Shown here one piece after another: positions 2,707-31,401 of a stretch of DNA of 32,000 nucleotides. The stretch is taken from the NCBI RefSeq assembly GCF_000283555.1, contig NC_016012.1:1206639-1238638 (forward strand), in the 5' to 3' direction. A model generated the notes under the pieces. That model did no database searches and was not told the origin of the DNA. It was given only the letters and a program-made list of their open reading frames with translations. Source of the stretch: Candidatus Arthromitus sp. SFB-rat-Yit. Lineage in GTDB: Bacteria > Bacillota > Clostridia > Clostridiales > Clostridiaceae. The position numbers and the translations under genes are program-made. How positions within the stretch are numbered: position 1 is the stretch's first letter; the number at the start of each line of letters is the position of its first letter.

Positions 2707-2729
2707 AGGAGCAATTATTGCTCCTTTTT
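2705..2729. terminator. Bidirectional intrinsic terminator between convergent genes
   Basis: Hairpin AAAGGAGCAA-TTA-TTGCTCCTTT followed by a T-run. It starts at the birA stop codon and overlaps the last codons of the convergent minus-strand gene. Confidence 0.6.
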
Positions 2730-3167: not shown

Positions 3168-3202
3168 GTTAACTCTCCTTATCATTTTTATTTATTTAAA
3201 AT

Positions 3203-3592: not shown

Positions 3593-3609
3593 AAAATCCC
3601 TCCTAAGAT

Positions 3610-4272: not shown

Positions 4273-4310
4273 CTTTATCTCTCCTCCAAACAATACAAAT
4301 AAAATATCAC

Positions 4311-4622: not shown

Positions 4623-4724
4623 TAAAATCTTCTCCCTCGTTTAATCGTTAGATCTATTTTGGTATAATTGGATAATTTTAATACATTTGTAAAATTTAAA
4701 GTTTTTTGGTTTTTTTTAACGAGA

Positions 4725-4765
4725 TAAAAAAAATATGAAGAATAACTTAACAATTATCTTCATAT
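4725..4765 (-). terminator. Intrinsic terminator after the lipoprotein gene
   Basis: On the minus strand the hairpin is ATGAAGATAA..TTATTCTTCAT with one bulge, followed by a T8 run (A-run 4725-4734 on plus). It separates 4777-5325 from the four-gene operon downstream. Confidence 0.5.
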
Positions 4766-4776
4766 TTGAAAATCTT

Positions 4777-5325
4777 CTATTTAGTTGTATACAATAAAAT
4801 ATCACTGAACATTGAATCACTCACATTCTTGATTACTTTCTCGTAGTTATCAAACTGAAGTGATAAATCTATTTTCCCATTTGGGTGATCATACCTATCT
4901 ATATTTTTTATCTCCGTTAAATGAATTATTTCTTTTGAATATCCATTATCGGGCGTAAATACTATTGAATTTCTTGTAACTTCAAAATTTCCCAAAATAT
5001 CAACACCATCTAAATTGTATTTACCATAATATGTATTTTTTATATTAGCTAAATCCTCATCCTTAAATTCCTTTGCTTCAATATATGTACTATTTTCTCC
5101 TCTGCTTTCCATGTTTTCTCTCTTATCATAGGAATTCCTAGAAGTATTTCCCGTATCTCTGTTATAATTTTCAAAAGTTTTTTTATCACTTACACTGCTT
5201 AAAGCACTCTCAAACTTATCAACATTCGCACTTTTTGTACAACTAACCATTATGATTAATATCAAAACCATACAAAATATAATAATAGGTCTTGTTATAT
5301 TAAAAGAATTTCTACCATTGTTCAT
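4777..5325 (-). CDS. Putative lipoprotein, unknown function
   Basis: RBS AAAGGAGAA and a signal peptide ending in the lipobox-like IIMVSC. The mature part is polar (Asn/Ser/Asp-rich). Confidence 0.6.
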   Translation of the reverse strand: MNNGRNSFNITRPIIIFCMVLILIIMVSCTKSANVDKFESALSSVSDKKTFENYNRDTGNTSRNSYDKRENMESRGENSTYIEAKEFKDEDLANIKNTYYGKYNLDGVDILGNFEVTRNSIVFTPDNGYSKEIIHLTEIKNIDRYDHPNGKIDLSLQFDNYEKVIKNVSDSMFSDILLYTTK

Positions 5326-11087: not shown

Positions 11088-12953
11088 TTAGTACAAATAA
11101 TCTAAAGTAGGTATTTCTTCGCTTAAAATTTCTCCAGTTGTACTATCATAAATAGCTTTGAGCTTAAAATAATTCTCACGTATTATAAACGCCTCATACT
11201 CACTGTAAGAATTATCTAATCCCTCATAAGCTGCTTCAATATTTGAAAATGCTCTCTGTATATTTTTCTCTATATTTGTATAATAAGCTCCTGCATTATT
11301 TAAATTTAAAATATCTTCTGGATTAAGCTCATAAGCTCTTCTTATACTATCTATACCAGGACCTTCTTCTCCCATATTCAAAAGAAGCAATCCATATGTT
11401 CTAACATAAATAGAATCCTCTTTTAGAGCTATCGCTTCCATTAATTTTTGTTTAGCCTCTTCATACTTTTTCAAATCTATATAAATTTTGGCTGCTTGAT
11501 ATCTAAGCCCAGACTCATATATAGAAATTTTATTTGAAAATTTAAGTATTTTAAGTGCACTTTCTATATCATTAAACTCATTTGTATATTTAAGTACAAA
11601 AATTTTATCAATATAAGTATTTAATATATCTAGTGATTTCATTTTACAATAAAAGTAATTCATATTTACAATTTTTTTCTGTCCAATAAGTACATTAAGT
11701 AATACCTTATAACTTAAAGCAAAATCACCATTTAATTTAATGCTCTGAGTTATTTCATTTAAAGATTCATTATAGTTCTCAAGCTCTAAGTTATGCTTTG
11801 CCAAAATATAATGAACATAAAAATTCTTATCTTTTATACTCCTTAATTCATTTAAAATGACGTTGGCTTCATCTAATCTATTTGCGTTTGTAAGTATCTC
11901 GAGTCTTATCCCATTTGATAGCATATTTGTATTATATTTTTTCGAAAACTCATAAACATCTTCAAGATTTAATTGAGTCCTATACACATCTTCTATATGT
12001 ATAATAGCACGAATAAATCGTATCTCTGGAGTTTCTCCAAAAGATTCTATAAAATAATTCACAGCATTATTTGCATTATTTATATCATAATACTTGATCA
12101 TATCTACAATAGATAAAACATTTATATTTTCAGGATCAATTTCAAATATCTTAACTAAAGCATTTAAAGTATTATCAAATCTATTAAATATAACACTTAG
12201 CTTACCATAACTAATCACATCATCTATATCTAAGACATTTGATAAATCTATCCCATTATAAATATATAGAGCATTCTCTGTATTACCTGTTAAAAGATTA
12301 TATACTATCTCCTTTTCTTTAAACCTTACCTCATGTCCTAAATTCTGGGCATTTTTATCTAAAATTTCTCTTGCTTCTTCTAGGTTTTCATATAAAAATA
12401 AACTATCTAAGAACTTGTACACATTTTTTTTATACTCATCTTGATTTCTTGCAATAACACTTTGAGATAACTTATTTTTTATTAAGGAAAGCTCTTCTTT
12501 TACCTGTGAAACATTATTGATAGAAGCAAGCATCGTTACAAGTTCTAAATGACTTTCCATAGAAATTGATGAATCATTTCTATATGCACTTATAAGTTTT
12601 TGAAAATCTCCACGTATTATATAATCCAAAGAATTATTTATTATCTCTTCCTCTTCTTTCTTACCCTCTATCTTATTTACCAAAAGTTCTATATTATTGT
12701 CAATAATACTATACGTTCCTGTAACGCTATAACTCACTACTAAAAACACTATACAACATGAAACAACAACCATGCGTTTAAAAAATTTATTTGATGGAAG
12801 TACTTTATAATTTTTGCGTATATCCTTCTCTCTCAAATAATTAATTATCTCATAAGGTGACATGCCCGTGAAGTCTACTTTCTTCTTTTTTCTCTTAACT
12901 ATCTTATCTAAGCGTTCAAAGTAAACTTCCCTACCTTTCAAATTTTTCTTCAT
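11088..12953 (-). CDS. Membrane-anchored TPR-repeat protein, unknown function
   Basis: The 621-aa product has a basic N-terminal segment, one TM helix (MVVVSCCIVFLVVSYSV), then about 540 aa of helical repeats. The C-terminal third has clear TPR-like units (e.g. AAKIYIDLKKYEEAKQKLMEAIALKED, IDSIRRAYELNPED). Confidence 0.65.
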   Translation of the reverse strand: MKKNLKGREVYFERLDKIVKRKKKKVDFTGMSPYEIINYLREKDIRKNYKVLPSNKFFKRMVVVSCCIVFLVVSYSVTGTYSIIDNNIELLVNKIEGKKEEEEIINNSLDYIIRGDFQKLISAYRNDSSISMESHLELVTMLASINNVSQVKEELSLIKNKLSQSVIARNQDEYKKNVYKFLDSLFLYENLEEAREILDKNAQNLGHEVRFKEKEIVYNLLTGNTENALYIYNGIDLSNVLDIDDVISYGKLSVIFNRFDNTLNALVKIFEIDPENINVLSIVDMIKYYDINNANNAVNYFIESFGETPEIRFIRAIIHIEDVYRTQLNLEDVYEFSKKYNTNMLSNGIRLEILTNANRLDEANVILNELRSIKDKNFYVHYILAKHNLELENYNESLNEITQSIKLNGDFALSYKVLLNVLIGQKKIVNMNYFYCKMKSLDILNTYIDKIFVLKYTNEFNDIESALKILKFSNKISIYESGLRYQAAKIYIDLKKYEEAKQKLMEAIALKEDSIYVRTYGLLLLNMGEEGPGIDSIRRAYELNPEDILNLNNAGAYYTNIEKNIQRAFSNIEAAYEGLDNSYSEYEAFIIRENYFKLKAIYDSTTGEILSEEIPTLDYLY

Positions 12954-13035: not shown

Positions 13036-13935
13036 ATGAAATTTTTAATAAAATCATTACTTATCATCACGTTTTTAACAGGATTTTATCTTTGTACATA
13101 CGAAAATATTTTTTCCGAGTCCATACATCTTTTAACATTTTATTCTCAAAACTTTAAAGATTATATAAGTAACATTCTACTACAAAATAAAAATATTAAC
13201 AACACACTAGAGGAAACAAATACAAAATCACTATTAAACGAATACTTCATAACAATCTTTAATGAATGTCATATGAATGATAATTTTAAAGAAAACATCA
13301 ATTCTTCAAACTTTAAAATTTTAAACCTAAATAATGAAAAGGTTTCAAATATAGACAATATTTCAAATTTTTCTGGAAAAAACTTTTGCGTTTTAAATTC
13401 CCCTGAGGATTATGAAAATATTGAAAATTTTAAGATAAACAATCAAACTTATAAGCTATTTAATTACGATAATTATTCAATTTCCTATATTAATCCAAAA
13501 CTTTTAACAAATAAAGACTTATTAGATCTCTACAAATATTTAAGCGTATTTGAAAAAAATTTTTATACATCTGTTATCTTCTTAAATAAAAATGATGCAA
13601 AAGAAAAACTCATCTCTCAAATATTAAATAAATATAGAATAATTATAACTCTTGGAGATGAATTTGTAGTTAAAGATTTTAAAAACTTTCCATTAATAAC
13701 GCTCGGCAAATTAAACGATGTAAATCTCTTATATCAGATAAACCTCTTTATTTCGGATTATGCTATTAAAAAAATAAAAATAAAATTATTTCCAACAAAC
13801 GAGCACGGAATAACTCTTTCCCATGAAAAAATACAAGAAGTTTTAAATAATTTAATAGAAAATTCTGAATTAAAATTCCATATGAGCGAAAATGGTGACT
13901 ATATTTATAGTGAATATGATATACTTAAGAAATAA
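13036..13935 (+). CDS. Hypothetical exported or membrane-anchored protein
   Basis: RBS AAGGGGA and a hydrophobic N-terminus (LLIITFLTGFYLC). The protein is Asn-rich and I recognise no motif. It is the first gene of the murT-gatD operon, 29 nt upstream of murT. Confidence 0.5.
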   Translation: MKFLIKSLLIITFLTGFYLCTYENIFSESIHLLTFYSQNFKDYISNILLQNKNINNTLEETNTKSLLNEYFITIFNECHMNDNFKENINSSNFKILNLNNEKVSNIDNISNFSGKNFCVLNSPEDYENIENFKINNQTYKLFNYDNYSISYINPKLLTNKDLLDLYKYLSVFEKNFYTSVIFLNKNDAKEKLISQILNKYRIIITLGDEFVVKDFKNFPLITLGKLNDVNLLYQINLFISDYAIKKIKIKLFPTNEHGITLSHEKIQEVLNNLIENSELKFHMSENGDYIYSEYDILKK

Positions 13936-16087: not shown

Positions 16088-17335
16088 ATGAGAAGACTTA
16101 AGAGGAAATTTTTTATATTTATATTTACTATTTTTACAACAATTTTATATACAACAAATATTTCTCTAGCTACAACGCCCTATACTTACAAAATAACGCT
16201 CGAAGAAGATATACAGTTTGTACACGAAACAATAATAGACTACGATGGTAATGGAAACAATCAAGAAATAAATTACATCGAATTTGACTTAAACAACAAA
16301 AACATTTCATTATCACTTATTAAAGCAAATAACTTAACGGCATCAAAGGAAACTTTATTAAACCAATTAAATGCTTCTGAAAGTATAACAGGTAAAAACA
16401 TAATAGGAGGGATCAACGGAGATTTTTTTCAAATTTCAAATGGTCAACCACTTTTTACAACAATATCAAATGGTGAAATATTCTCTATAACAGGCGATCC
16501 TTCTGATTATTTAAAAAGACCTGTATTTTATATAGACAAATCTGGTAACTACGATTTTGATTATTTATATATAAATGGAACGCTTAAATTTCCAAAAAGT
16601 TCGTTTAAAAATTTAACTATAGACTCTATAAACAGGCTTGATTCATACAAACATACGAACATATCAAATTACAAAATTAATGAAGAGTCAACATACTACC
16701 CACATGAAGGCATACCTTCTAGATATATGTTAATAGAGCTTTTTAACAGTGATGGAAGTATCATTGCTGGAACAACAATATATGGAAAAGTAATTGATGT
16801 GGGGGAAATGAATGAACCTAAAGAAATTAGAAAGAATGAAATTTTAATTACTTCCTATGGGGATGATAATTATTATGATATAAATTACACATTTTTAAAT
16901 GAAATTGTTTCCTTAAATTTTGATATTTACTCTACTAATCAAGGTAAATTTAAAAATGATATTGTAAGTGCCTTCACGGGACACGAATATTTAATATTAT
17001 CCGGAGAAGAAATGAACATTAATTATTATAAAACCCTAGGTGATACGGCTTTTATTTCAGGGCGTCACGCAAGGACAGCTTTAGGCATAACAGATGATAA
17101 TAAACTAATATTATTTACAGTTGACAAATCAAATAATAGTGCAGGCATGACACTTTCTGAGCTAGCAAGATATTTAAAATATCTTCACGTAACTTCTGCG
17201 ATAAACTTAGATGGTGGAGGATCAACCTCAATAGTACTTGAAAATAATACATATGATTTAAACTTAATGAACGATCAAACAAAATATCAAAGAGAAATAA
17301 CAGATGGAATTGGAATAATAATAAATAAGGCGTAG
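16088..17335 (+). CDS. Secreted phosphodiester glycosidase family protein (NAGPA/DUF2233-like)
   Basis: Signal peptide (..TNISLA-TT). The blocks GGINGDFF, RTALGITDDNKLILFTVD and NLDGGGSTS are typical of the 'uncovering enzyme'-like phosphodiester glycosidase domain. Confidence 0.7.
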   Translation: MRRLKRKFFIFIFTIFTTILYTTNISLATTPYTYKITLEEDIQFVHETIIDYDGNGNNQEINYIEFDLNNKNISLSLIKANNLTASKETLLNQLNASESITGKNIIGGINGDFFQISNGQPLFTTISNGEIFSITGDPSDYLKRPVFYIDKSGNYDFDYLYINGTLKFPKSSFKNLTIDSINRLDSYKHTNISNYKINEESTYYPHEGIPSRYMLIELFNSDGSIIAGTTIYGKVIDVGEMNEPKEIRKNEILITSYGDDNYYDINYTFLNEIVSLNFDIYSTNQGKFKNDIVSAFTGHEYLILSGEEMNINYYKTLGDTAFISGRHARTALGITDDNKLILFTVDKSNNSAGMTLSELARYLKYLHVTSAINLDGGGSTSIVLENNTYDLNLMNDQTKYQREITDGIGIIINKA

Positions 17336-17360
17336 ATTTAATATCTACGCCTTTTATTAT
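17327..17360. terminator. Intrinsic terminator between convergent genes
   Basis: AAGGCGTAGAT-TTAAT-ATCTACGCCTT followed by TTTATTATTTT. It overlaps the stop codon at 17333-17335 and is usable from both directions. Confidence 0.7.
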
Positions 17361-17401: not shown

Positions 17402-20400
17402 CTACCATTCAAAATTTATTTTTTGAGCTAAATTTTTAAGTTCAGTTTCATTAACCATTCTATCAGCTATAGCTTGAAGAGTTGCAGTAGCTGATCCATA
17501 AACTGCTAATAATTTTTTATATTCTTCAACCCAGAATGCTTTTCCTTGAGTATCAGAATCTCTATTAACTATAGCATTATATAATGCTTCTACTTTAGTT
17601 TCAGCAGTTGTATATATTTTCTCAAATTCTCTCTCATTTATCATATTCAACAAGAATGCTCTTAGAGAAACTCTCTTATTGCTTAAGTTGTCTAAATGGA
17701 ACATATATCCATTTTCATCAGCTGGCCTATTAAATACTACATTATAAACGTTAGCTAAATAGCTTTGTCCTTCATTTGTAGCGTTAATTTTTACATTTTT
17801 AAGGAATAAAGTTCTAGTTCTGTTATTTCTATCATTGTAATTAATACTTATCTCAACGTAATCTTTTCCTGGAACTAGTCCATCAACAACTACTCTTCCA
17901 TTCTCAAATCTAACTTTAACATTTGAGTATTGGTCATTAGTTTCAGTTACAGTTTTACCATCTTTATCTTTATATTTAAATCCAGCAATTGAAGGATTTG
18001 AATTGCTTTCGTGATGGTAAGTTCCTGAAGGTAGAGTCACACTTATTGAATTTGAACCTGTAGTTGAGTTAGTTCCTGTTACATTTACTGTAGTAGAAGA
18101 AGTTGATGAAGAACTACCTGAAGAACCGCCAGATATTGTTCCACTATTTGATGAAGTTGGCTTAGTTGTAACTGTTAAAACATTAGATTCAATCGTATCA
18201 TTATTTAGTGGATCATTTGTTTCATTATAAGTATAAACTGCTACAAATTCATACTTTGTATTAGCCTTTAATCCAGAAACAACCTTAGTTATTACACCAT
18301 CTTTTATATCTTGTGGAATAGCTAAATCAAGTTCTTTATATGGATTATTAGTTCCAGCTTCCCTATAACTAATATAAGCTGCTTTTACACCAGTTGTAGC
18401 ATTTCCAAAGAAATCAGCATCAATTTCTAAAGTAACTGAAGATGATGTTGTACCATATTCATCAATGTATATTGTTATAGGCTGATTGCTTACAATTACT
18501 CCAGCACTATAAGTTCCTTGATATTTTCCTGTACCCACAACATTATTAATTGCATGACTTCCCTCTTTAAATTGATCAAAAGTAACTCTATCACTAGTAA
18601 TAGTATCTACAGTAACTTTACCACCAGTAGGCACAGTAGTTCCAAAACTTGCATCAACTTTAAACTGATCAGTTATATTTTCCATTCCTTGGTTTGTAGC
18701 CTTAACACTTGTTAAATTAACTGATTCAACAGCTCCGCCAGTCAAATCTACTTCTCCTGTCGCAGTTTTATCTCCTATTTTAAGAGTCCAATCAGCATCA
18801 TTATTATTTGGAACTTGTCCATTAAACTGAACATCGAACACTAAATCTTTACCATTACTCTTTGTACTATTAACTGTAGCCTTACCACCATCAACTGTTA
18901 ACAATGCTTTAGTATAATCTGCTGAACCAACAAATTTAGTCAACAACTCAGTACCACCAGGTATTGTAATTTGTCCTTCAGAAGAACTAGTCTTAACAAA
19001 GCTAGCTTGTACAGCAGCACCATCAATCTTATCAGTTGAAATTATTAATGATGTTTTAACAGTACTTGCTAATCCTGGAGTAAACTCTGATTTTACCTGA
19101 GTTGCACCAGCGTCTAATGATTGATTTCCACTTTCAACTTTTGCTTTATCATCAGTATCATTATACTCAAATATAACTGGTATAGCTTGATATCCATGTT
19201 TAAAACTATCTACATTTAATTTAACTTGAGCATTTACATCTATCCCAATAAAGTCCGTTTTTCCATTTTGGATATCTACATAAGCATAAGTAGTAGTACC
19301 ACCACCTGGAACACTAGTTGTTGCTGCAACTGTTACCCCACTAAATGCATCAAAATATACTGCACTACCATGTCCATCTATATTAAACGAATGTTTACCT
19401 ATCAACGCAGTAGCACTCGTAGTAGCATTACCCCCTGCTTGAGGAGCTACAAATCCATAACTTGCCTCAGGTGTAGGAACAAAATTATCTTCAAGAGCTG
19501 TAGCATCATTAGCCAGTTTTGCAGATTCTACAGTAACTGTAACCTCTTTACCTGTTGTAGGATCTATCTTTAATTTTGCTCCCCCAACTTTAGCTGTGTT
19601 ACCTGTAGTTTCTTCCATAACTGTTTGTACATACGTCAACAATGGAGCACTTCCAAGTTGTATTCCATAACTAGACTTATCTTTTTCATGAGTTGGAAGC
19701 GTTGGTGCAGTGGCTTCACCAAAATCAGTTTTTATAGTATCTGCTAAAGTTCCCATATTAGTTGAATCATTAGTAGCAGTAACTCCTTTAATTGAAGAAT
19801 TTTGATCTTCAAATAAAATAATATCTGAAGTTAAAGTATACTGACCGTTTCCATAAGTAACATCTACTTTTATTGTATCATTTAAATCCAAGTTTCCGTT
19901 TTTACCTAACTTTAATAAGCTTACTGTATAATTTCCAGTAGTAGTATCTTTAGTAAGATCAAATCCTTTTGTCGCATCTGTTCCTATATAAGCAGTAACT
20001 TTCTCTGGATTAAAAGTAGTAATATCTTTTGAGCCATTATTAAATTTAAGATTCTTCACTACAAGCTGTCCTGTAGTTATATCAGTATCAAAACTTATAG
20101 TATCGCTTGGTTTCTTAACTAAACTTAAAGTATACTTTTCTGTACTATTATCTTTATAAGTTACAGTAACATCTCCAGTATAAATTCCTGGGTCAGTCAT
20201 TCCACTTACAGTTAATTTTTTTGTAGTACTATCCCAAGCTCCAGTAGCACCATTTCCGTTAGTCTCGATATTTACTCTTTCATCAAAAATTTTATGAGCA
20301 AATGTACCAGCGTCAATCTTATTTACATTATTAAAATCTAAATTCTTAAACGTAACTTCTGCGTTACCATTTGTAGTAACCTCAACAGATGTTTCTAAGT

Positions 20401-20563
20401 ATTTTATTTGCAAAGCATCTAACTTAGCTGCTAAATCTGCACTCAATCTTGAATCTTGAGCGTGTGCTATTACTGCTTGTCTACCTACTGTTCCAACAGT
20501 AACCATTAAAGAATTTATTCCAAGTGCTGCTGCTAAAGCAAGCGCTACTCTTTTTTTATTCAT
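17402..20563 (-). CDS. Large secreted surface protein (candidate S-layer protein) with C-terminal tandem DUF4214-like repeats
   Basis: Start at ATG 20561-20563 (RBS GGAGG). The signal peptide is MNKKRVALALAAALGINSLMVTVGTVGRQAVIAHA-QD. The mature protein is Thr/Gly/Asn/Val-rich with no Cys. It has repeated Ig/FN3-like segments, a Ser/Thr linker, and a C-terminal 120 aa with two [FY]xxxYxxxxxRxxDxxGxxxW-type repeats. Confidence 0.8.
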   Translation of the reverse strand: MNKKRVALALAAALGINSLMVTVGTVGRQAVIAHAQDSRLSADLAAKLDALQIKYLETSVEVTTNGNAEVTFKNLDFNNVNKIDAGTFAHKIFDERVNIETNGNGATGAWDSTTKKLTVSGMTDPGIYTGDVTVTYKDNSTEKYTLSLVKKPSDTISFDTDITTGQLVVKNLKFNNGSKDITTFNPEKVTAYIGTDATKGFDLTKDTTTGNYTVSLLKLGKNGNLDLNDTIKVDVTYGNGQYTLTSDIILFEDQNSSIKGVTATNDSTNMGTLADTIKTDFGEATAPTLPTHEKDKSSYGIQLGSAPLLTYVQTVMEETTGNTAKVGGAKLKIDPTTGKEVTVTVESAKLANDATALEDNFVPTPEASYGFVAPQAGGNATTSATALIGKHSFNIDGHGSAVYFDAFSGVTVAATTSVPGGGTTTYAYVDIQNGKTDFIGIDVNAQVKLNVDSFKHGYQAIPVIFEYNDTDDKAKVESGNQSLDAGATQVKSEFTPGLASTVKTSLIISTDKIDGAAVQASFVKTSSSEGQITIPGGTELLTKFVGSADYTKALLTVDGGKATVNSTKSNGKDLVFDVQFNGQVPNNNDADWTLKIGDKTATGEVDLTGGAVESVNLTSVKATNQGMENITDQFKVDASFGTTVPTGGKVTVDTITSDRVTFDQFKEGSHAINNVVGTGKYQGTYSAGVIVSNQPITIYIDEYGTTSSSVTLEIDADFFGNATTGVKAAYISYREAGTNNPYKELDLAIPQDIKDGVITKVVSGLKANTKYEFVAVYTYNETNDPLNNDTIESNVLTVTTKPTSSNSGTISGGSSGSSSSTSSTTVNVTGTNSTTGSNSISVTLPSGTYHHESNSNPSIAGFKYKDKDGKTVTETNDQYSNVKVRFENGRVVVDGLVPGKDYVEISINYNDRNNRTRTLFLKNVKINATNEGQSYLANVYNVVFNRPADENGYMFHLDNLSNKRVSLRAFLLNMINEREFEKIYTTAETKVEALYNAIVNRDSDTQGKAFWVEEYKKLLAVYGSATATLQAIADRMVNETELKNLAQKINFEW

Positions 20564-21305
20564 ATTATTTTTTTGCCTCCATTTTTTATTTGAAATCAAT
20601 ATTTTCTTATTCTTATGTAAATATTAACTATGCAAGTTGTTCCATAGAAGTTCCAAATCCTTTTTACAAATCATCTTCATACTTCCAAATCCCCAACTAA
20701 AAGTTATATTTTATCATCTATCTACTCATTTGTTAGACTCTGTTTTATCAAAATAATTATAAAAACCTATTTTTTCGCTTGATTATCAATTTTAATAGTT
20801 TAACATTGTTTATTGCTTGTCCATTTACTAAACCTAGCAATGATACACTACCATGTCGAAATTCATTAAAATATCTTGAAAACAAAACTAAATAACTAAA
20901 ATTTCCTATTATTAAAATAATATTTTTTTCGGTTTTATGTCAAACTTTCCAGTAAAAAGATAAAACTTCTCCTCAAAAATTTTATCTGCATTGTTATACA
21001 ATATAAACTTAGAGAATTCTTTCTACATGTTCCCTCCAATTAACTCAAACATAAAGAATTGCATTAATTTTTATAAAATAATAACAATTACATTACAATA
21101 TTACTACATTTTTTATACTAAAGTCAACCTATTTTATAATTATTTTCCTAAAATATATACTTGTTTCCCTATATTTTATAGTAAAATATTTCATATTTCA
21201 TAAACTATAATTGCTCATAATACCCGAAACCTTAAGTTAATTTAACTAAAATTTTATTTATAAAATCTAAAAATGTTATACCATACTAATTTTAAATAAA
21301 ACAAA

Positions 21306-21332
21306 TAGTCATTTGAAAATTTCAAATGACTA
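21306..21332 (-). terminator. Intrinsic terminator at the end of the glycosyltransferase gene
   Basis: A perfect 11-bp stem, TAGTCATTTGA-AAATT-TCAAATGACTA, that includes the stop codon. On the minus strand it is followed by TTTGTTTTATTT. Confidence 0.55.
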
Positions 21333-22313
21333 TACAAACAAAAACAAATTATAAAGATGTCTATACCCAAAATCCATAAGCTTACTTTCTATTATTTTAA
21401 TAAAACCAATCCCACTAAATATTGCAGTTCTACTACTCTCATATTTGAATACATCCTCACCCATAAAACAATTAAAACCATACTCATCTATAAATCTACA
21501 TTTAACATCTGGATAATATCTCTGCATTATATCATTAATAATCATTATAATATCTTTTTCATACACAATAACTATGTTCTCAAAATTTCTTAAAACATTA
21601 TCAAACAAATAAATCAACTTAAGCTCAAAATTTCTATACATCATTTCTAATTTATTCTCAGGATTAAGCGATGTATTTGTTTTATGAACTCTATAATTAT
21701 AAACCACATCAGGTAAATTTCCTATCTTAAACCCTGCATTATGAAATTCAAGATAAATAAGCTTATCCTCAATAATCGAAAACTCCTTCTTAAATGGCAT
21801 AAGTTTTATAAATAAATCACGTCTACCGAATAACCCTCCCCCGTTTATACAAGACCCAGAATATATCCTTAAAAATTGAATATCTTCATTTAGAATTTCA
21901 TAATTAAGAGTTTCCATCATTTTCATATAAAGCTTGCTACCATTACCAAAACTCTTTAAATAACATCCTATAAGATCATAATTACCCTCTTTTAAATACT
22001 TAAGTTGCTTCTCATACCTATAAATCTCATTAATATCATCTCCATCACACCTTGCAATATATTTTCCACGAGAAAGCAAAACTCCAACCTTCATAGCCTC
22101 ACATATTCCACCATTTCTTTTTGTTATAACCCTAATTCTTTCATCCTTTTTTTCATACTCTCTTAAAATATTGTAACTCCTATCTGTAGAACCATCATCA
22201 ACCAAAATTATATCTAAATTAGTATGAGTTTGATTAACAATACTATCAAGTGTATCCCTTAAATAAATTTCATTATTATATACTGGTACAATAACACTTA
22301 TTAAATCCTCCAT
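21330..22313 (-). CDS. Family 2 glycosyltransferase (GT-A fold) with an uncharacterised C-terminal extension of about 110 aa
   Basis: ISVIVPVYNNEIYLRDTLDSIVNQTHTNLDIILVDDGSTD is the canonical GT2 N-terminus, and a DGDD (DxD) motif is present. RBS AAAGGGGA lies 9 nt before the ATG. Confidence 0.85.
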   Translation of the reverse strand: MEDLISVIVPVYNNEIYLRDTLDSIVNQTHTNLDIILVDDGSTDRSYNILREYEKKDERIRVITKRNGGICEAMKVGVLLSRGKYIARCDGDDINEIYRYEKQLKYLKEGNYDLIGCYLKSFGNGSKLYMKMMETLNYEILNEDIQFLRIYSGSCINGGGLFGRRDLFIKLMPFKKEFSIIEDKLIYLEFHNAGFKIGNLPDVVYNYRVHKTNTSLNPENKLEMMYRNFELKLIYLFDNVLRNFENIVIVYEKDIIMIINDIMQRYYPDVKCRFIDEYGFNCFMGEDVFKYESSRTAIFSGIGFIKIIESKLMDFGYRHLYNLFLFV

Positions 22314-22340
22314 AGCACAATGTCCCCTTTTACATAAATT

Positions 22341-22377
22341 AAAAAATAGCTAGAATTTTTTAAAAAAATCCTAGCTA
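22341..22377 (-). terminator. Terminator-like hairpin between the orphan gene and the GT2 gene
   Basis: Minus strand: TAGCTAGGATTTTTTT/AAAAAATTCTAGCTA, a long AT-rich stem with one mismatch, followed by T6. It lies only about 25 nt upstream of the GT2 start. Confidence 0.45.
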
Positions 22378-22482
22378 AATCTATATAAAATCGAATTCAA
22401 ATTTGATATTAATAATTTACGTAAACCATATAAATTCATTTAATTATAATTCGTGATATATCACAAGTCCTAATAAATTAAA

Positions 22483-23379
22483 CTATAAGCTGTTAAACTC
22501 ATCAATATATTTTTCAAGTGCATCTTTATCTTCCCTTTTAAGTGCATACTCACATAAAATCATTAATGTATTCTTACCTATAAAACTATATAAATCTTTA
22601 TTTAAATTAAAATAATTTTTATATTTGTTACTTATATTAAGTGCATATTTTTCTATAACTTCATCCAATTCTTTATTCTTAATTTTAGAATCAAGTATAT
22701 AATACTCCCAAATTGGATTATCATCAAGTATACTTAATCTATCTAATATAAATCCATCAATCTCATTACATTCAATTAATTTTAAATAATCTCTTATCTT
22801 TATAATATTTATCTTAGTATTTACAAAATTCTTATATTCATAATTACTTACTCTATCTTCTAATACGACCTCTTTATTAACTAAATCATTAATAACAAAA
22901 TTTATATTACATGGCACTATCTCTTTTAATATGAAATATAGTTCATTTAATTCTGAATAATCTTCTAAAAAAAATTCATCAGCATTTAATCTTATAGCTA
23001 TTTTATTAGAACAATCATAATTATGCTTAATTGGATATGAGTTAGAACAAATTTTATATAAATTTTTATCCAAAACCTCATCTTTTAAATTAATCTCTAT
23101 TCCATAATTTCTATAATATAAAAGATTCTCTACAAAATAATCAAAATCCTCATATATGTTATAGTATTCAATCAATTCCTCATAATCATCGCCAAAAAAA
23201 TAATCTTTCAAACCATCTGATACTGAATCTATAAGCTTTAACACCTTAATCCTTTTTTGTACTTTTAAAATTAAATTACTATTTATCCTCTCTTTCCCTA
23301 AAAGTTCATCCATTATATAATAGAAAAAATTAATATTCCCTATTAAAAATTTAGAGTAGGCATGTATAAAATCTCCCAA
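22483..23379 (-). CDS. Hypothetical cytoplasmic acidic protein (orphan)
   Basis: TTG start 6 nt after AAGGAG. The 298-aa product has no signal peptide or TM segment, is rich in Asp/Glu/Tyr/Asn, and carries no motif I recognise. Confidence 0.55.
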   Translation of the reverse strand: MGDFIHAYSKFLIGNINFFYYIMDELLGKERINSNLILKVQKRIKVLKLIDSVSDGLKDYFFGDDYEELIEYYNIYEDFDYFVENLLYYRNYGIEINLKDEVLDKNLYKICSNSYPIKHNYDCSNKIAIRLNADEFFLEDYSELNELYFILKEIVPCNINFVINDLVNKEVVLEDRVSNYEYKNFVNTKINIIKIRDYLKLIECNEIDGFILDRLSILDDNPIWEYYILDSKIKNKELDEVIEKYALNISNKYKNYFNLNKDLYSFIGKNTLMILCEYALKREDKDALEKYIDEFNSL

Positions 23380-23482
23380 TTTATTCTCCTTAAAAATTAA
23401 TTCTCCTTATATTAATAGGTATTAACCAATTAAAATATACCCATAATAAAAGGCATGTACCTATGGCACACACCTTTATTAA

Positions 23483-25648
23483 TTACTCTACTCTTAATCC
23501 AAGACTATATAAGAAGTTTCTAGTTTCTGACTCACCAAGCATTCTTTCAGATATAGCCTGCATAGCCGCAGTTCTATCTCCAACTTGTGCAATTGTTTCT
23601 TCTAAAGTCTTAACCCACCAAGCAAGTCCTTCAGAATCTGATGTTCTTCCTGTAACAGATCTATACATACGCTCTACGTACTTAGTATTATCTAAGTTTT
23701 TCTCTTTATATTCTTGTTCGTTAACTATATTAGACGTGAAATAATTAACTGAAAACTCTTGTGAAGAAAGTTTTGATGTCCAATATGCCATTCCATCTGG
23801 ATCACCATCTCTTAAGAAGAATATATTATAGAAACCTTCAATCCACTCTTTTGCATTTGTAATTTTCTTAGTTGTAAATGGCTCTATATCCATAGCTAAC
23901 TCTTGTCCATCTTTAAGCACAACTACTAATTCAAGTCCTTCAGTTAAATTGTTTGGAATTATTCCATATAACTTAACTAAATTCTCTTTAGTATCATAGA
24001 ATGAACTTGCAATTGAATCTCCAACAATTGAAACATCTTTTATAATTCCATTTGGATCATTAAATAATATTTCAAATTCCGCTTTAGTTGGAGTAACATT
24101 CTTAAGTTCAAATGATTTTAATAAATCTCCTTCTTCTCCAGCTGAAGTACCATTTCCAAGTGTTCTTATCGTCATAGGATTTACAGAAATAACATCATAA
24201 TTTGTAAACCTTCTGTTTATATCACCATCTCCAGAGTTAAACGTAACAATTAATTCCGTAAACTTATAATCTGTTCCAGACTTTAACCCTGTTATCAATA
24301 AATCTTTATACTCAGAGGCATTTTTTTGAGGATCCTTTAAAGTATTATCAAGTTTAGCATAAGACTGCATAGATCCAATTTTAGTATCCTCTTTTAAAAT
24401 CTTACCATCATAAAGATTTCCTTCCGAATCCTTTACTTGTATTCTCTTTATTGTATCCTCAGGATCATATAAAGCATCATAAAGTACTACTCCATCCTCC
24501 AAAGGTCTAACGTTAGCATGATTATATCCTTGTGCTTTATCTTCTTCTGAAAATGGACCAATATAACGGATTATATTATCATCAGTTGATACAATCTCAC
24601 CTTTATCATCTACATCAACATTAACAAAATAAGAAACTGTAGGTTTAATTGCTAAAGGATCTAATGGATTTGTATTATCAATATTTATATTCTCTGTTAA
24701 TAGAGGATCTAAATAAGGAATTATTCCTTTTTTACCTTCTATAGCAGTTTGAGTTGATGTTTTTTGAACTACACTCTTGTCCACAAGTGTTGGAAAAATC
24801 AAAGAACCACCAAAAGATATATTAGTTATCTCAGATCCTGTTGGTAATCCATAAATCTTAAAATAAATATTCCCTTCTTTGTCTACAATTTTAGGAGCAT
24901 TATAAACATTTGTATACTGATTTATCTTACCTGTTGTGGTATCCATAACTAAATCCTCAATTGATATCTTTTTAGTTTCAGTTTTAGCACCACTTGTATA
25001 TGTCACATTAAGTGTAAAATCTTTATTCACCAAATTGCCTGACTCATCTTTCATACCAAGTGAATTTTGTATAATTGTCGCAAGAGTTTCTTGTTGAACT
25101 AATTCAATCTGAGAACCCTTTCCACTTGATAAAATATTTAAATTCTTAGTATATTCATTAACAGCTGCATCTATATTAGACTTCAAAGCAGCTTCAACAT
25201 TACCCGAAAACTTAACCTTGATATAAGCATATCCACCTGTTGATTTATCCCTTAAGTACGATTTTTGATAACCTTGCATATCTTCTCTTGCTACAACTGA
25301 AGTATTTCGAATTACCCCACCTTCAACTCCAGTTATTGTTAAAAACTGCTCTTCTGCATTTACTGACGAAGAAGATTTAACAAAATCTTCCGTTCCTTTT
25401 AATGGTAAAACTTCGTTCTCATCATACTTACCATTACCATTAAAATCAACTGCACCTGGATTCGTTCCAGCTGGCAACTCCATGTTTGAAAGGTTAATCG
25501 TAAATTGGCTATCCCCTTCAACATATCTACTTTGCTGTGCTGGTACAGCCCAAGCAAATTTCGAACCGATATGAGTCATCACACCTGAAGCAACAGATAA
25601 AGATAAAAATATCCCGATTAATTTCTTCATAAATTTTTTACTAAACAT
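23483..25648 (-). CDS. Secreted surface protein with C-terminal tandem DUF4214-like repeats (paralogous C-terminus to 17402-20563)
   Basis: RBS AAGGAGGA and signal peptide ..HIGSKFAWA-VP. The mature protein has no Cys. An FN3-like segment precedes the C-terminal 120 aa, WIEGFYNIFFLRDGDPDGMAYW...YVERMYRSVTGRTSDSEGLAWWVKTL... Confidence 0.8.
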   Translation of the reverse strand: MFSKKFMKKLIGIFLSLSVASGVMTHIGSKFAWAVPAQQSRYVEGDSQFTINLSNMELPAGTNPGAVDFNGNGKYDENEVLPLKGTEDFVKSSSSVNAEEQFLTITGVEGGVIRNTSVVAREDMQGYQKSYLRDKSTGGYAYIKVKFSGNVEAALKSNIDAAVNEYTKNLNILSSGKGSQIELVQQETLATIIQNSLGMKDESGNLVNKDFTLNVTYTSGAKTETKKISIEDLVMDTTTGKINQYTNVYNAPKIVDKEGNIYFKIYGLPTGSEITNISFGGSLIFPTLVDKSVVQKTSTQTAIEGKKGIIPYLDPLLTENINIDNTNPLDPLAIKPTVSYFVNVDVDDKGEIVSTDDNIIRYIGPFSEEDKAQGYNHANVRPLEDGVVLYDALYDPEDTIKRIQVKDSEGNLYDGKILKEDTKIGSMQSYAKLDNTLKDPQKNASEYKDLLITGLKSGTDYKFTELIVTFNSGDGDINRRFTNYDVISVNPMTIRTLGNGTSAGEEGDLLKSFELKNVTPTKAEFEILFNDPNGIIKDVSIVGDSIASSFYDTKENLVKLYGIIPNNLTEGLELVVVLKDGQELAMDIEPFTTKKITNAKEWIEGFYNIFFLRDGDPDGMAYWTSKLSSQEFSVNYFTSNIVNEQEYKEKNLDNTKYVERMYRSVTGRTSDSEGLAWWVKTLEETIAQVGDRTAAMQAISERMLGESETRNFLYSLGLRVE

Positions 25649-25794
25649 TTCTTCCTCCTTGAAAGAATTAAATTTTTAAGATTAATCTTTCAAACCGATA
25701 AATTTATAAATCTAAATTCATGTTATGTTCACATAATCGGAATATTTTTATTTTTATTTACTATGTATAGTTATTTTTATTTAATTTTTTATGT

Positions 25795-26919
25795 TCAGTT
25801 ATTCGAAATCAATTTCATATACTCTTTACTCGATTCCATATTTAAAAACTTATCCAAAAGTTCAATTTTACTCTCATCAACAGTCTCCTTATTAGAAAAT
25901 TTTTCATTAAACTCTTCCAAAGTGATTATTGACACTCTTCCATTTATTATTTTTTTATTAGCTAAAAAATAAATACTATCAACTATCTCTTTATTAGTTG
26001 TATTTATTAAATCAAATTCATCACTCAAAATAATTTCACTCAATATACTCTTTATATCAACTACATTATTTAAAACATTATATAAATTTTGAGAATACTC
26101 TTTTTCAGTTGGATATCTCTTTAAAACTTGAGAATAAATTTTAACAAAATAATTTTCAAGTTCTGAACCATAGTCCATTAAAAGTTTTGAAATTATAAAC
26201 TTTATTTTATTTTGATCCTTATCGTAAGAAACTATTTCCACATTCAAATACTGCTTTCCTGGAATCAAATTGCCAATTATTAATTTGTTGTTATTCTTAT
26301 CATAATTTACACTTAAACCCGAAACTTTATTTCCATTAAAATCAGCTGTAATTGTAAATTTTGAATTTGGATCTATGTTAATATTTTCCGGAATATCAAC
26401 CGAACTAGTTACTCCCTTTGTTGTGTAACCATTAAGTGCAAAAACATTTTCAAAATTTTGATATAACTCATCTTCTATATTAATCATTAAAATATCACTC
26501 ATATAAATTTTATCTCCTTTTTTAAGTGACATCTTCAAATACAAATTTACATTCTTATCCAAGAAATCCAGATTTTTGTATAAATCCTTATCAAAATTTT
26601 CATCAATTTTAATATTAAATCTCTCTATGTAACTATCTTCTGTATTAATATCTTTAGTATGAATGGAAAAAATATAATCTTTTAAATTTTTAGAATTAAT
26701 TTCATTCAAATTATACATAATGTAATTAATTAAATCATTTTTAGTTAGTTTATTAGTATTGATAGGTGATAAAAATAGCTTATCATCTTTTATACCAATA
26801 AATTCTTTACCCAAAATTTTTGTATCTACAGTTTTTAATATGAAATCTAAATTTATAGTTACAAGAAGTATACAAATAAAAACAACTATACCAATAAAAT
26901 TACGTAATTTATAATTCAA
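25795..26919 (-). CDS. N-terminally membrane-anchored protein with a degenerate copy of the same C-terminal cassette
   Basis: TTG start 9 nt after GGAGG, and a TM anchor FIGIVVFICILLVTINL. The segment LIIGNLIPGKQYLNVEIVSYDKDQNK resembles GLVPGKDYVEISINYNDRNN of the 1053-aa protein. It is followed by YFVKIYSQVLKRYPTEKEY...ILSDEF, a degenerate DUF4214-like repeat. Confidence 0.65.
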   Translation of the reverse strand: MNYKLRNFIGIVVFICILLVTINLDFILKTVDTKILGKEFIGIKDDKLFLSPINTNKLTKNDLINYIMYNLNEINSKNLKDYIFSIHTKDINTEDSYIERFNIKIDENFDKDLYKNLDFLDKNVNLYLKMSLKKGDKIYMSDILMINIEDELYQNFENVFALNGYTTKGVTSSVDIPENINIDPNSKFTITADFNGNKVSGLSVNYDKNNNKLIIGNLIPGKQYLNVEIVSYDKDQNKIKFIISKLLMDYGSELENYFVKIYSQVLKRYPTEKEYSQNLYNVLNNVVDIKSILSEIILSDEFDLINTTNKEIVDSIYFLANKKIINGRVSIITLEEFNEKFSNKETVDESKIELLDKFLNMESSKEYMKLISNN

Positions 26920-26985: not shown

Positions 26986-27978
26986 TTAATTTTCTATATA
27001 TTTATCCTTAAGTACCAAATCCACCCAGTTCAAATTACTCAAATACCAATTTATAGTATTTCTAATTCCTACTTCAAAATCAGTTATACACTTAAATCCA
27101 AGCTCATTATATATTTTACTACTATCAACTGAATATTTTAAATCATGCCCTAATCTATCATCTACATAAGTTATAAGAGAATAATCTTTATTTAACAATC
27201 TAAGTATTTTCTTTATCAAACTCAAATTATCAATTTCATATCCAGAGGATATATTATATATTTCTCCTTTTTTGCCTTCTTTTATAATCTTATCAATAGC
27301 CATAGAATGATCATGAACATACACCCAATCACGTATATTTTTCCCATCGCCATATACAGGTATCTTATTACCCTTGAGTGCATTTACAATAACAACAGGT
27401 ATTAACTTTTCTGGAAATTGATATGATCCATAATTATTTGTACATCTAGATATTGTTACATTAAGTTTAAACATCTTAAAATAACTCATAACTAACATAT
27501 CCGCTGATGCCTTTGAAACTGAATAAGGTGAAGATGGTCTTAATATATCTCCTTCTTCAAAACTTTTATCATCCTCTAATTTCAAATCACCATATACTTC
27601 ATCAGTTGAAATTTGATGATATCTATTAACACCATACTTCAAACACATATCCATCAAATTCTTAGTTCCTATAATGTTAGTTTCTAAAAATACTTGTCCA
27701 TTATATATTGATTTATCTACATGAGATTCTGCAGCAAAATTTACTACAATATCGAAATCTTCATTTTGAAAAACTTTATCCAAAAAATTATTATCTAAAA
27801 TATTCCCTCTATAAAATTTAAAATTTATATTTTGTCTAACAAGCTCTAAGTTTTCAAGATTCCCCGCATATGTCAATGCATCTATACAAGTAACATATAT
27901 ATCCCTATATTTGTTAATCATATAGTGAATAAAATTGCTTCCTATAAACCCTGCTCCACCTACTACACAAATTTTCAT
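26986..27978 (-). CDS. rfbB: dTDP-glucose 4,6-dehydratase
   Basis: GGAGFIGSNF, AAESHVDKS, STDEVYGDL, PSSPYSVSKASADM (the YxxxK motif), NNYGSYQFPEKLIP and DRLGHDLKY. The protein is collinear with E. coli RfbB throughout. Confidence 0.9.
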   Translation of the reverse strand: MKICVVGGAGFIGSNFIHYMINKYRDIYVTCIDALTYAGNLENLELVRQNINFKFYRGNILDNNFLDKVFQNEDFDIVVNFAAESHVDKSIYNGQVFLETNIIGTKNLMDMCLKYGVNRYHQISTDEVYGDLKLEDDKSFEEGDILRPSSPYSVSKASADMLVMSYFKMFKLNVTISRCTNNYGSYQFPEKLIPVVIVNALKGNKIPVYGDGKNIRDWVYVHDHSMAIDKIIKEGKKGEIYNISSGYEIDNLSLIKKILRLLNKDYSLITYVDDRLGHDLKYSVDSSKIYNELGFKCITDFEVGIRNTINWYLSNLNWVDLVLKDKYIEN

Positions 27979-29996: not shown

Positions 29997-30014
29997 TCTT
30001 TCAAGAAAACTAGT

Positions 30015-30046
30015 CCTTTAATTTTAGTCCAGAGAGACTAACAAGG
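30015..30046 (+). promoter_or_regulatory. PyrR-binding anti-antiterminator hairpin (PyrR binding site RNA)
   Basis: CCTT-taatt-TTAGTC-CAGAGA-GACTAA-c-AAGG. The core AGUCCAGAGAGACU matches the conserved PyrR box ARUCCAGAGAGGYU with one G-to-A change, and it sits in the expected stem / internal loop / stem context. Confidence 0.75.
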
Positions 30047-30090
30047 CCTTATACGAATGTGTTTTTACATAATTAAAAATAATTCATTTT

Positions 30091-30118
30091 ATAACGGCCT
30101 TTTGGCCGTTATTTTTTA
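30091..30118 (+). terminator. Attenuator (intrinsic terminator) in the codBA leader
   Basis: ATAACGGCC-TTTT-GGCCGTTAT followed by T5, 42 nt upstream of the codB ATG. AAGGCC (30043-30048), which overlaps the 3' side of the PyrR hairpin, can alternatively pair with GGCCTT (30096-30101) as an antiterminator. Confidence 0.75.
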
Positions 30119-30159
30119 TGCTAGTTTGATAAAAATTTAATACGATTGGAGATGGCTAA

Positions 30160-31401
30160 ATGGATAAAAATAAAATTTCAGATATGGATTATTCTTTATC
30201 TTCCGTAGATTCTAAAGACAGAAAAGGGTTCTTTTCAATATTTGTTATAATGCTAGGATTCACATTTTTCTCTGCAAGTATGCTAACAGGTGCAACCATT
30301 GGAGTTTCTCTAAATTTAAATGACTTCCTAAAATCTATATTAATTGGAAACTTAATTCTCTCTATATACACAGGACTATTATCATACATAGGATCTGATA
30401 CTGGATTATCGCTACACCTATTAACTAAATATTCATTTGGATTAAAGGGATCTTATCTCCCATCATTCATTACAAGCATAACTCAAATAGGATGGTTTGG
30501 TGTAGGTATTTCAATGTTTGCAATACCCATATCAAATAGATTCAATATAAACCTTTATGTTCTTGTTCTAATAACAGGAATCTTAATGACTAGTACCGCT
30601 TACTTTGGAATGAAATCACTTACTATATTAAGTGCAATAGCTGTACCTGCTATTGCAATACTCGGTGGTCTATCACTACTTATAGCAATTCAATCAATTG
30701 GTGGATTCGGCGAACTATATAGTATAACTCCAACAAATCCGATGAATTTAATAACTGCAATAACTTTATGTATTGGATCTTTTATAAGTGGAGGTACTGT
30801 TACTCCAGACTTTACTAGATTTTCAAAAACAAAGAAAATCGCGGTATCAACAACAGTAATAGCTTTCTTTATTGGTAACTCCTTAATGTTCTTATTTGGT
30901 GCAGTTGGTGCAATGGTTACCGGAAATTCTGATATAGCTGATGTAATGTTCTCTCAAGGCCTTATTATACCAGCTATAATTGTACTTGGACTTAATATAT
31001 GGACAACAAATGATAATGCGATATATACAGCAGGTCTTGGACTCTCTAATATAACAAAAGTTAAAAAAAACAAATTAGTATTGATAAGTGGTTTAATTGG
31101 AACTCTCGGCTCTATATGGATTAATAATAATTTTACATCTTTCCTAACTTTATTAAATTCAATGCTACCTCCAATCGGAGGTGTTGTCATCGCAGATTAC
31201 TTTTTCATAAAGAAACTCAAATACGATAAAATAGAAATTGCAAAATTCAAAGAGGTTAATCCAATAGCTATAATATCATTTATTATTGGATTTTTAGTTG
31301 CAAATTTTATATCATTTGGTATACCTGCCATAAATGCTATTATTTCAACAATAATTATTTATATTATTGGAATGAAAATTTTTAAAAATAAGGATGTGTA
31401 A
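30160..31401 (+). CDS. codB: Cytosine permease (NCS1 family)
   Basis: Collinear with E. coli CodB: LGFTFFSASM, IGNL..IYT, TQIGWFGVGISMFAIP, GSFISGGT.TPDF.RF, LGLNIWTTNDNAIY and PPIGGVVIADY. Confidence 0.88.
   Translation: MDKNKISDMDYSLSSVDSKDRKGFFSIFVIMLGFTFFSASMLTGATIGVSLNLNDFLKSILIGNLILSIYTGLLSYIGSDTGLSLHLLTKYSFGLKGSYLPSFITSITQIGWFGVGISMFAIPISNRFNINLYVLVLITGILMTSTAYFGMKSLTILSAIAVPAIAILGGLSLLIAIQSIGGFGELYSITPTNPMNLITAITLCIGSFISGGTVTPDFTRFSKTKKIAVSTTVIAFFIGNSLMFLFGAVGAMVTGNSDIADVMFSQGLIIPAIIVLGLNIWTTNDNAIYTAGLGLSNITKVKKNKLVLISGLIGTLGSIWINNNFTSFLTLLNSMLPPIGGVVIADYFFIKKLKYDKIEIAKFKEVNPIAIISFIIGFLVANFISFGIPAINAIISTIIIYIIGMKIFKNKDV

Follow-up and report, generated by a model that had tools for sequence, protein, structure and literature searches.

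The closest described relatives of the proteins considered here come from segmented filamentous bacteria (SFB). Pamp et al. 2012 (PMC3371716) grouped 19 secreted SFB proteins as Cluster.1, together with a Cluster.3, whose C-terminal regions are similar to Pfam PF13946 (DUF4214). These proteins show low overall similarity, tandem helices with a likeness to the phycobilisome linker 2KY4, and polymorphism between strains, and one member contains a fibronectin type III (FN3) domain (Pamp et al. 2012, PMC3371716). Later SFB papers have called DUF4214 a likely surface-anchoring domain, and according to a 2025 Nature Communications paper, SFB largely lack the wall-binding domains usual in clostridia. 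The envelope of these bacteria comprises a surface layer (S-layer) and a hair-like layer. Here we analyzed a window of 32,000 nucleotides from Candidatus Arthromitus sp. SFB-rat-Yit (NC_016012.1, positions 1,206,639 to 1,238,638), in which three neighbouring genes, called A, B and C below, encode proteins that end in one and the same cassette, a beta part followed by a helical DUF4214 part. The original prediction, made from the letters of the window, regarded this cassette as a possible novel wall-anchoring module. The novelty does not stand, since the 2012 study had described the module and later work had called it a likely surface anchor. Because both the observation and the anchor interpretation are in the literature, the shared cassette is a rediscovery. 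Like the proteins of Cluster.1 and Cluster.3, A and B are SFB-encoded and have signal peptides and a C-terminal DUF4214 cassette; the likeness is drawn from these features. What we add is that the two DUF4214 units are predicted to form one linker-like globule, that a beta domain with a GLVPGK-Y motif belongs to the cassette as an obligatory component, that the un-annotated membrane protein C is a diverged cassette member, and that the linkage between cassette genes and glycan genes is stable.

The positions predicted for the three genes are correct, and the shared end is readily detected. In BLASTP, A and B match with E=3e-19 over ~320 amino acids (aa), of which the last ~120 aa align gap-free as had been noticed. 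A and C match with E=2e-9 over 108 aa. B and C show no significant similarity by BLASTP, so that the three-way likeness of the C-termini holds directly for A-B and A-C, and the B-C relationship is shown through A and a family hidden Markov model (HMM). The assignment of the module to DUF4214 was borne out by the PF13946 search, in which A (38.8 bits) and B (50.4 bits) both exceed the gathering score of 23.2 bits, each protein with two stretches. C scores 12.8 bits (E=0.13), below gathering, and is not a member by Pfam score alone. C was also compared with a cassette-family HMM. This was built from 54 cassette sequences, none taken from the window, and was run against the full set of 120 window ORFs with a length of 50 aa or more. 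Only three of the 120 matched: A (1e-74), B (1e-49) and C (1.9e-15). The match to C (49.7 bits) spans HMM positions 12-130 only, which correspond to the beta part and the first half-repeat; its second half-repeat is recognisable only through predicted structure. A 47%-identical homolog of C (P0255) does have a precomputed PF13946 match. As alignments, Pfam and HMM agree, the shared cassette is real, correctly placed and far beyond chance, and C, which had been described as a degenerate version, is a genuine diverged member.

The cassette stands on otherwise unrelated exported neighbours, as predicted. A and B have typical Sec signal peptides. Neither sequence contains Cys (hence no lipobox), LPxTG or a C-terminal transmembrane segment, and a Pfam scan of A, B and C at E<=1 gave no match to SLH, CWB2, choline-binding, LysM or LPxTG-sortase anchors. 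Protein A is identical (100%) to BAK81633.1 / WP_014095093.1 of SFB-rat-Yit. Its mechanical ORF, opened at an upstream TTG, is 1065 aa long. The composition of A is S-layer-like, with 12.7% Thr, no Cys and an isoelectric point (pI) of 4.7. We considered A as a subunit of the S-layer or hair-like layer and dropped this candidate, because published labelling of its ortholog places the protein beneath or among the layers.

The helical part of the cassette is predicted to have an all-alpha, phycobilisome-linker-like fold. For the last 185 residues of A, AlphaFold2 with a 19-sequence alignment gives a model (pLDDT 90, pTM 0.82) of four beta strands followed by eight helices. The full-length AlphaFold2 model of C (pLDDT 82) also has eight helices, ordered as in A. 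With the A model as query, Foldseek against the PDB places the phycobilisome-linker structures 3osj, 2ky4 and 3pru on top (E down to 6e-4), with target-normalised TM-scores of 0.5-0.56 over ~120 residues of the cassette, and a profile search of PDB sequences matches the cassette profile to the REP domains of ApcE at E=1e-12. Both repeats together align on single phycobilisome-linker domains, suggesting that tandem DUF4214 forms one globule of two half-repeats. The earlier claim of two tandem repeats is thus right as far as the two Pfam stretches in A and B go, but the model predicts one eight-helix globule and not two domains. A multi-repeat relative with ten Pfam DUF4214 stretches but five matches to the helical region of the cassette agrees with the half-repeat reading. 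By sequence, the relationship to phycobilisome linkers is at superfamily level only. In a search with the linker family PF00427 (gathering score 28.7 bits), B reaches 13.9 bits, below gathering, and A has no match, and the organism is a non-photosynthetic member of the Clostridiaceae.

The beta part carries the GLVPGK-Y motif, in which G, L, P, K and Y are invariant or nearly so in 31 cassette proteins. The strands in front of the helical module had been called FN3-like. Pfam fn3 (PF00041) did not match the isolated beta segments of A, B or C at E<=10, and the claim is borne out in part only: a beta-sandwich is predicted, and Foldseek relates the C model to tandem immunoglobulin (Ig)/FnIII domains with probability >0.9 at TM-scores of 0.1-0.3, values that are low because the query has several domains. 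Only four strands are seen in the A model, which was cut within the domain, versus a sandwich of ~8 strands in C. In C, the canonical D-x2-G-x3-W of DUF4214 is replaced by a conserved KRYPTEKEY. Across 8 homologs with 46-75% identity, the eight-helix domain of C, KRYPTEKEY included, shows strong conservation, indicating a diverged variant under constraint and not a decaying copy.

The cassette is constant while the passenger, the part of the protein in front of it, varies. Between rat and mouse SFB, A is 54.6% identical overall, with 76-88% in cassette windows and 22-68% in the passenger; the stretch at aa ~150-500 falls to 22-42%. B is 85% identical overall and 94-98% in its cassette windows (last ~120 aa), C is 73.5% identical, and the neighbouring genes are 72-88% identical. 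A second rat-SFB assembly (L001, SRR19621095) is 97.9-99.5% identical to the window in the flanks of gene A, and blastn finds no match across ~1 kb of the gene itself (19026-20082). The A proteins of the two rat strains are ~35% identical over aa 150-500 and ~100% identical over the last 250 aa. A constant foot combined with a rapidly replaced exposed part is the pattern expected of an envelope-docked surface antigen. The ~1-kb divergence looks like a cassette-like allelic replacement of the exposed part.

Judged by sequence and gene order, A is the rat positional ortholog of P3340, the SFB Th17/B-cell antigen (SFBNYU_003340; AID45212 in SFB-mouse-NL). Its mouse homolog is AID45212.1 (P0173), whose 90%-identity cluster contains SFBNYU_003340 (EGX28318.1). 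The gene order of SFB-mouse-NL, rmlB-C-B-298aa-GT2-A-NAGPA-GatD-MurT, is identical to that of the window, the two proteins have the same length and a conserved signal peptide, and their cassette windows are closely similar as given above; on these grounds we treat them as orthologs. They are far from identical over their whole length, and they also differ at the epitope. EGX28318.1 is the source of the epitope of the T-cell receptor TCR-7B8. The site that we take to be this epitope reads DVQFSGAVPNKTD in mouse and DVQFNGQVPNNND in rat A. None of the SFB epitope peptides looked for is present in the rat window. AID45212 has been studied under the name "Th17Ag" by immunogold, immunofluorescence and nanobody labelling. 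It is reported as an abundant surface component of offspring cells and filaments, interpreted by the authors as cell-wall-associated; only at the filament tip is it not hidden beneath the hair-like layer. Past the right end of the window, ~10 genes from A, lie another cassette protein (967 aa in rat, L001:1-1366; 981 aa in mouse, L011:1-2592) and a 468-aa family-2 glycosyltransferase (GT2). In mouse, this cassette protein includes SGLIYVTL, which has been reported as the CD8 T-cell epitope of SFBNYU_003240. A single neighbourhood of ~25 kb thus encodes a dominant CD4 antigen and a CD8 antigen of SFB.

Relatives of the cassette were collected with an exhaustive HMMER search of 1.84 billion representative proteins, using a cassette profile of 185 positions. 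This search replaced a profile search of a word-indexed database with a two-sequence alignment, which had returned 4 fragments only. At E<=0.001, 11,785 proteins matched, and the following architecture counts rest on the best 150 of them. The whole 185-position cassette is present as one stretch at or near the C-terminus in 54 of the 150, mostly ending exactly at the last residue and otherwise within ~17 residues of it. The other 96 are multi-repeat DUF4214 proteins that match in the helical region only. A signal-peptide-like or transmembrane-like N-terminus is found in 46/54 whole-cassette proteins, and the other 8 look like fragments. The possibility that the cassette is a C-terminal secretion signal was rejected, as all members have Sec signal peptides. 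About 25 clusters are of the A type, ~1000-1100 aa long, with the cassette and the signal peptide of A kept among their representatives and divergent middles. All named whole-cassette proteins belong to Candidatus Arthromitus, and a contig profile search with a 5-sequence A-type alignment found 4 loci, all in Arthromitus-type metagenome-assembled genomes (MAGs). Tandem cassette genes occur in other Arthromitus-type MAGs (L003:385-6302; L006:1240-5339); L003 has an A-like gene and, after it, a further A-like copy that is divided between two ORFs. Among 31 cassette proteins scanned with Pfam, DUF4214 is found in 31/31 and fn3 in 13/31, the fn3 matches lying in the passengers, outside the cassette beta segment. 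Besides fn3, these passengers contain almost no domains and are nearly devoid of enzymatic ones. In the multi-repeat DUF4214 proteins of other bacteria, mostly with signal peptides, the passengers include BspA-type leucine-rich repeats, Big_2 and invasin domains as well as VanY, GH25, NlpC/P60 and YkuD, which are wall enzymes. PF00427 is also matched by 49 of 58 such proteins.

The interleaving of the cassette genes with genes for nucleotide sugars and glycan modification is stable. The window as a whole contains cell-envelope genes of a monoderm Firmicute, namely MurT/GatD, UppP, RmlB, GT2 and an NAGPA-type phosphodiester glycosidase. In a deeply divergent SFB-like genome (GCA_964271565.1), whose C is 47% identical, the order is RmlB-C-B-(625-aa protein)-GT2-A. 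The N-terminal 297 residues of the 625-aa protein (L009:13531-15408) are 46% identical to the 298-aa protein of the window (E=5e-74). Its C-terminal half is a TylF-type O-methyltransferase, and this half is absent from the rat and mouse SFB copies. A scan of the window found terminator-like hairpins after the 298-aa gene, after the GT2 gene and after A, which suggests three transcription units, rmlB-C-B-298aa, GT2 and A. A promoter scan was at chance level (81 sites vs 80 expected), and no promoter is claimed. Rfam gave no match within or near genes A, B and C. Mouse SFB keep the pairing of the NAGPA gene with A, a possible hint at phosphodiester-linked wall glycans.

We propose that A, B and C belong to a family of exported proteins, specific to SFB, in which a constant cassette forms the end. 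Once the protein has been exported by the Sec route, the cassette would retain it non-covalently in the cell envelope by binding some abundant and conserved envelope component, and the variable N-terminal passenger would project outward. As ligand we would favour a secondary wall glycopolymer. It might be a 6-deoxy-hexose polymer, with a contribution from the interleaved rmlB, GT2 and methyltransferase-related genes. C is a membrane-tethered diverged paralog, probably with an organising role. Wall anchoring by the cassette is plausible, and for a non-covalent retention device with a secondary wall glycopolymer as preferred ligand we put the chances at about even. Retention by the cassette is the most economical explanation, because A has no other recognisable anchor, its ortholog is reported on the cell surface, and the cassette is the only element that A has in common with the other SFB surface proteins. 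The passengers on DUF4214 repeats elsewhere are typical of wall-anchored proteins and lend independent support to retention. For a glycopolymer ligand we count the conserved linkage rmlB-C-B-(methyltransferase-related)-GT2-A in mouse SFB and in the divergent genome, as well as the need of many different cassette proteins for one abundant receptor.

Comparison with known anchors bears on this proposal in two ways. The likeness to SLH, CWB2 and choline-binding modules, on which the anchoring idea was originally modelled, is one of architecture and held up: the cassette is at the extreme C-terminus, is conserved while passengers diverge, and is accompanied by no other recognised anchor, just as those systems place one terminal module on many otherwise unrelated exported proteins, among them wall enzymes and proteins of the surface-array type. 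In sequence and fold, by contrast, there is no relationship to these modules (no matches), and the SFB cassette is a single acidic globule with a beta domain, versus three basic repeats in SLH and CWB2 anchors. Phycobilisome linker/REP domains (PF00427; 3osj, 2ky4, 3pru; ApcE) share with the cassette the all-helical fold and a Y...R..D/E motif. They belong to cytoplasmic cyanobacterial or plastid proteins that bind phycobiliprotein rings, whereas the SFB cassette, from a Firmicute that is not photosynthetic, is exported, lies at the C-terminus and is joined to a beta domain. A functional parallel may be Psh, an RTX-DUF4214 protein of Pseudomonas putida (bioRxiv 10.64898/2026.09.02.748959), which is secreted, has a C-terminal helical DUF4214 and adjoins O-antigen genes. 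Psh is proposed to dock on O-antigen (bioRxiv 10.64898/2026.09.02.748959), and this modelled docking serves as an analogy for a glycopolymer ligand. Unlike the SFB cassette proteins, Psh comes from a Gram-negative bacterium, uses type I secretion, has an RTX passenger and is without the cassette beta domain.

Several observations weigh against glycopolymer-based retention. The literature contains no binding experiment for any DUF4214 domain, and the Psh claim (bioRxiv 10.64898/2026.09.02.748959) is based on Boltz-2 modelling and gene context only. The only solved relatives, phycobilisome linker domains, bind proteins and not glycans. The invariant Y, R, D, G, W and E-F of the module also occur in phycobilisome linkers and are therefore probably determinants of the fold, not a ligand site. 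The helical module is acidic (pI ~5; 5.2 in A, 4.8 in B, 4.8 in C, family median 5.4), unlike the anchors that bind anionic wall polymers, which are basic. Choline-binding repeats are also present in 3-5 of the 58 multi-repeat DUF4214 proteins. The interleaved glycan genes, finally, fit the synthesis of a glycan receptor and the glycosylation of A and B alike, and could equally serve the latter.

The main rival explanation is docking on protein, in which the cassette plugs into the lattice of the S-layer or hair-like layer, forms cassette oligomers, or uses C as its base. It draws its strength from the acidic module, the protein-binding solved relatives and the fold-type invariant residues. 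The fold and profile homology to phycobilisome linker/REP domains points in the same direction, as REP/linker domains sit inside phycobiliprotein rings, and the acidity of the module argues against binding of an anionic polymer. SFB do possess an S-layer and a hair-like layer that could supply a lattice. C would suit the role of a base, being membrane-tethered, with the same predicted fold and conserved synteny, and its gene lies directly upstream of B, on the same strand, and no terminator is predicted in between. On the other hand, ~20 different cassette proteins per genome need a very abundant receptor, which in known Gram-positive systems is usually a wall polymer. The linkage to glycan genes is conserved, and the wall-enzyme passengers on DUF4214 repeats elsewhere fit wall targeting better. 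We regard protein docking as somewhat unlikely, though it deserves to be kept in mind.

It is also conceivable that the cassette has no part in retention. It might be a stalk or folding domain, or a glycosylation or maturation tag for the neighbouring GT2, RmlB and methyltransferase-related enzymes, the protein being retained otherwise or released. The interleaved glycan genes resemble S-layer-glycosylation clusters, which lie beside the gene of their substrate, and the Ser/Thr-rich tract of A adjoins the cassette. Release would agree with literature reports of DUF4214-protein peptides in human gut luminal fluid and of uptake of P3340 by host cells in vesicles. However, the ortholog of A is reported to be abundant on the cell surface, where it is read as wall-associated, and A is without other recognisable anchor. 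GT2 enzymes are of the cytoplasmic type and have no evident way to read an exported C-terminal domain, and many cassette proteins are encoded away from glycan genes. We therefore consider such a role improbable. A host-binding adhesin domain that contacts the ileal epithelium would suit the intimate attachment of SFB to epithelium and the fact that cassette proteins are major antigens. Yet the cassette is the most conserved part across strictly host-specific SFB of rat, mouse and turkey and lies at the C-terminal, cell-proximal end of the protein. A nanobody epitope in the C-terminal region is inaccessible along most of the filament, and attachment is mediated by the filament tip. An adhesin function of the cassette thus seems very improbable indeed.

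Returning to retention by a wall glycopolymer, a stronger form of the proposal can be stated. The cassette may be a new structural class of Gram-positive non-covalent anchor, in which the linker fold of light harvesting, put to a new use and combined with the beta domain, would recognise a neutral wall glycopolymer containing 6-deoxy-hexose and made with the help of the interleaved rmlB, GT2 and methyltransferase-related genes, and C would act as organiser or nucleation point. We offer this form tentatively and consider it rather doubtful as a whole.

Table 1. Positions of the cassette proteins, their parts and the neighbouring genes in the window (position 1 is the first nucleotide of the window).
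Feature	Position	Strand	Basis or remark
Protein A, DUF4214 surface protein, 1053 aa	17402..20563	-	ATG start behind GGAGG ribosome-binding site
Signal peptide of A, MNKKRVALALAAALGINSLMVTVGTVGRQAVIAHAQ	20456..20563	-	Read from sequence; GGAGG upstream
Hypervariable passenger segment of A, aa ~150-500	19064..20116	-	Strain and rat/mouse comparison
Ser/Thr/Gly-rich linker of A, aa 803-839	18047..18157	-	Read from sequence; just upstream of the constant C-terminal part
Beta part of A cassette, aa 883-924, GLVPGK-Y motif	17792..17917	-	AlphaFold2 model, four strands
Helical part of A cassette, aa 931-1048, two DUF4214 half-repeats	17420..17773	-	Pfam, two stretches; AlphaFold2, 8 helices
Protein B, exported DUF4214 protein, 721 aa	23483..25648	-	Pfam DUF4214; signal peptide read from sequence
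Cassette of B, aa 536-721; helical part ~23486-23854	23486..24043	-	Alignment to A cassette; HMM E=1e-49
Protein C, membrane-anchored paralog with diverged cassette, 374 aa	25795..26919	-	BLASTP to A; cassette HMM
N-terminal transmembrane helix of C, aa 3-35	26815..26913	-	AlphaFold2 helix at residues 3-35; hydrophobic sequence
Beta-sandwich of C cassette, aa 158-247	26179..26448	-	AlphaFold2, ~8 strands; Foldseek
Eight-helix domain of C, aa 253-373, diverged DUF4214-like globule	25801..26163	-	AlphaFold2; conservation
RmlB (dTDP-glucose 4,6-dehydratase)	26986..27978	-	NCBIfam TIGR01181, 431 bits vs cutoff 365; immediately upstream of C, B
298-aa protein, no Pfam/NCBIfam match	22483..23379	-	Homolog of the N-terminal domain of a TylF-type O-methyltransferase fusion
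Family-2 glycosyltransferase (GT2), between B and A	21330..22313	-	Pfam Glycos_transf_2, E=7e-35; synteny conserved
Exported NAGPA-type phosphodiester glycosidase, convergent with A	16088..17335	+	Pfam PF09992, E=1e-28; signal-peptide-like N-terminus
Bidirectional terminator-like hairpin between NAGPA gene and A	17327..17353	both	11-bp stem, then T-run, both strands

The Ser/Thr/Gly-rich linker of A listed in Table 1 may be a flexible or possibly glycosylated spacer. The window has a G+C content of 27% and is matched at 99.98% identity by a Logan contig of run DRR001117. Five consecutive small ORFs of 156, 129, 227, 103 and 182 aa occupy 2715-5325 on the minus strand; they have signal-peptide-like or transmembrane-like N-termini, Lys/Glu-rich helical-looking tails and no Pfam match. 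Between UppP and MurT/GatD lie a 621-aa TPR-containing protein (11088-12953, minus strand), 80% identical to its counterpart in mouse SFB, and a 299-aa protein with no family match (13036-13935, plus strand), 72% identical to mouse SFB. A PyrR binding site, RF00515, is found at 30011-30119 on the plus strand with 55.3 bits (gathering 54), upstream of a cytosine/purine/uracil-type permease gene at 30160-31401.

Among commensals, SFB serve as the model for intestinal Th17 induction. The rat ortholog of their dominant Th17/B-cell antigen is encoded at this locus, and the ortholog of a CD8 antigen that was reported recently lies just outside the window. Both the Th17 and the CD8 antigen end in the cassette. 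As the idea of a surface anchor is already in the literature, the value of our analysis is not a discovery but a module defined more sharply and in testable form: one linker-like globule together with a beta domain, with C as a diverged member, linkage to glycan genes, and A as ortholog of the Th17 antigen. Knowledge of the cassette ligand would help explain why host cells receive the antigen at the tip although it is masked along filaments, as well as the make-up of the S-layer and hair-like layer and the role of DUF4214 in a family whose profile matches number in the thousands. If true, a linker-fold glycopolymer anchor would explain how SFB retain, mask and shed the P3340 (CD4) and SFBNYU_003240-type (CD8) antigens.

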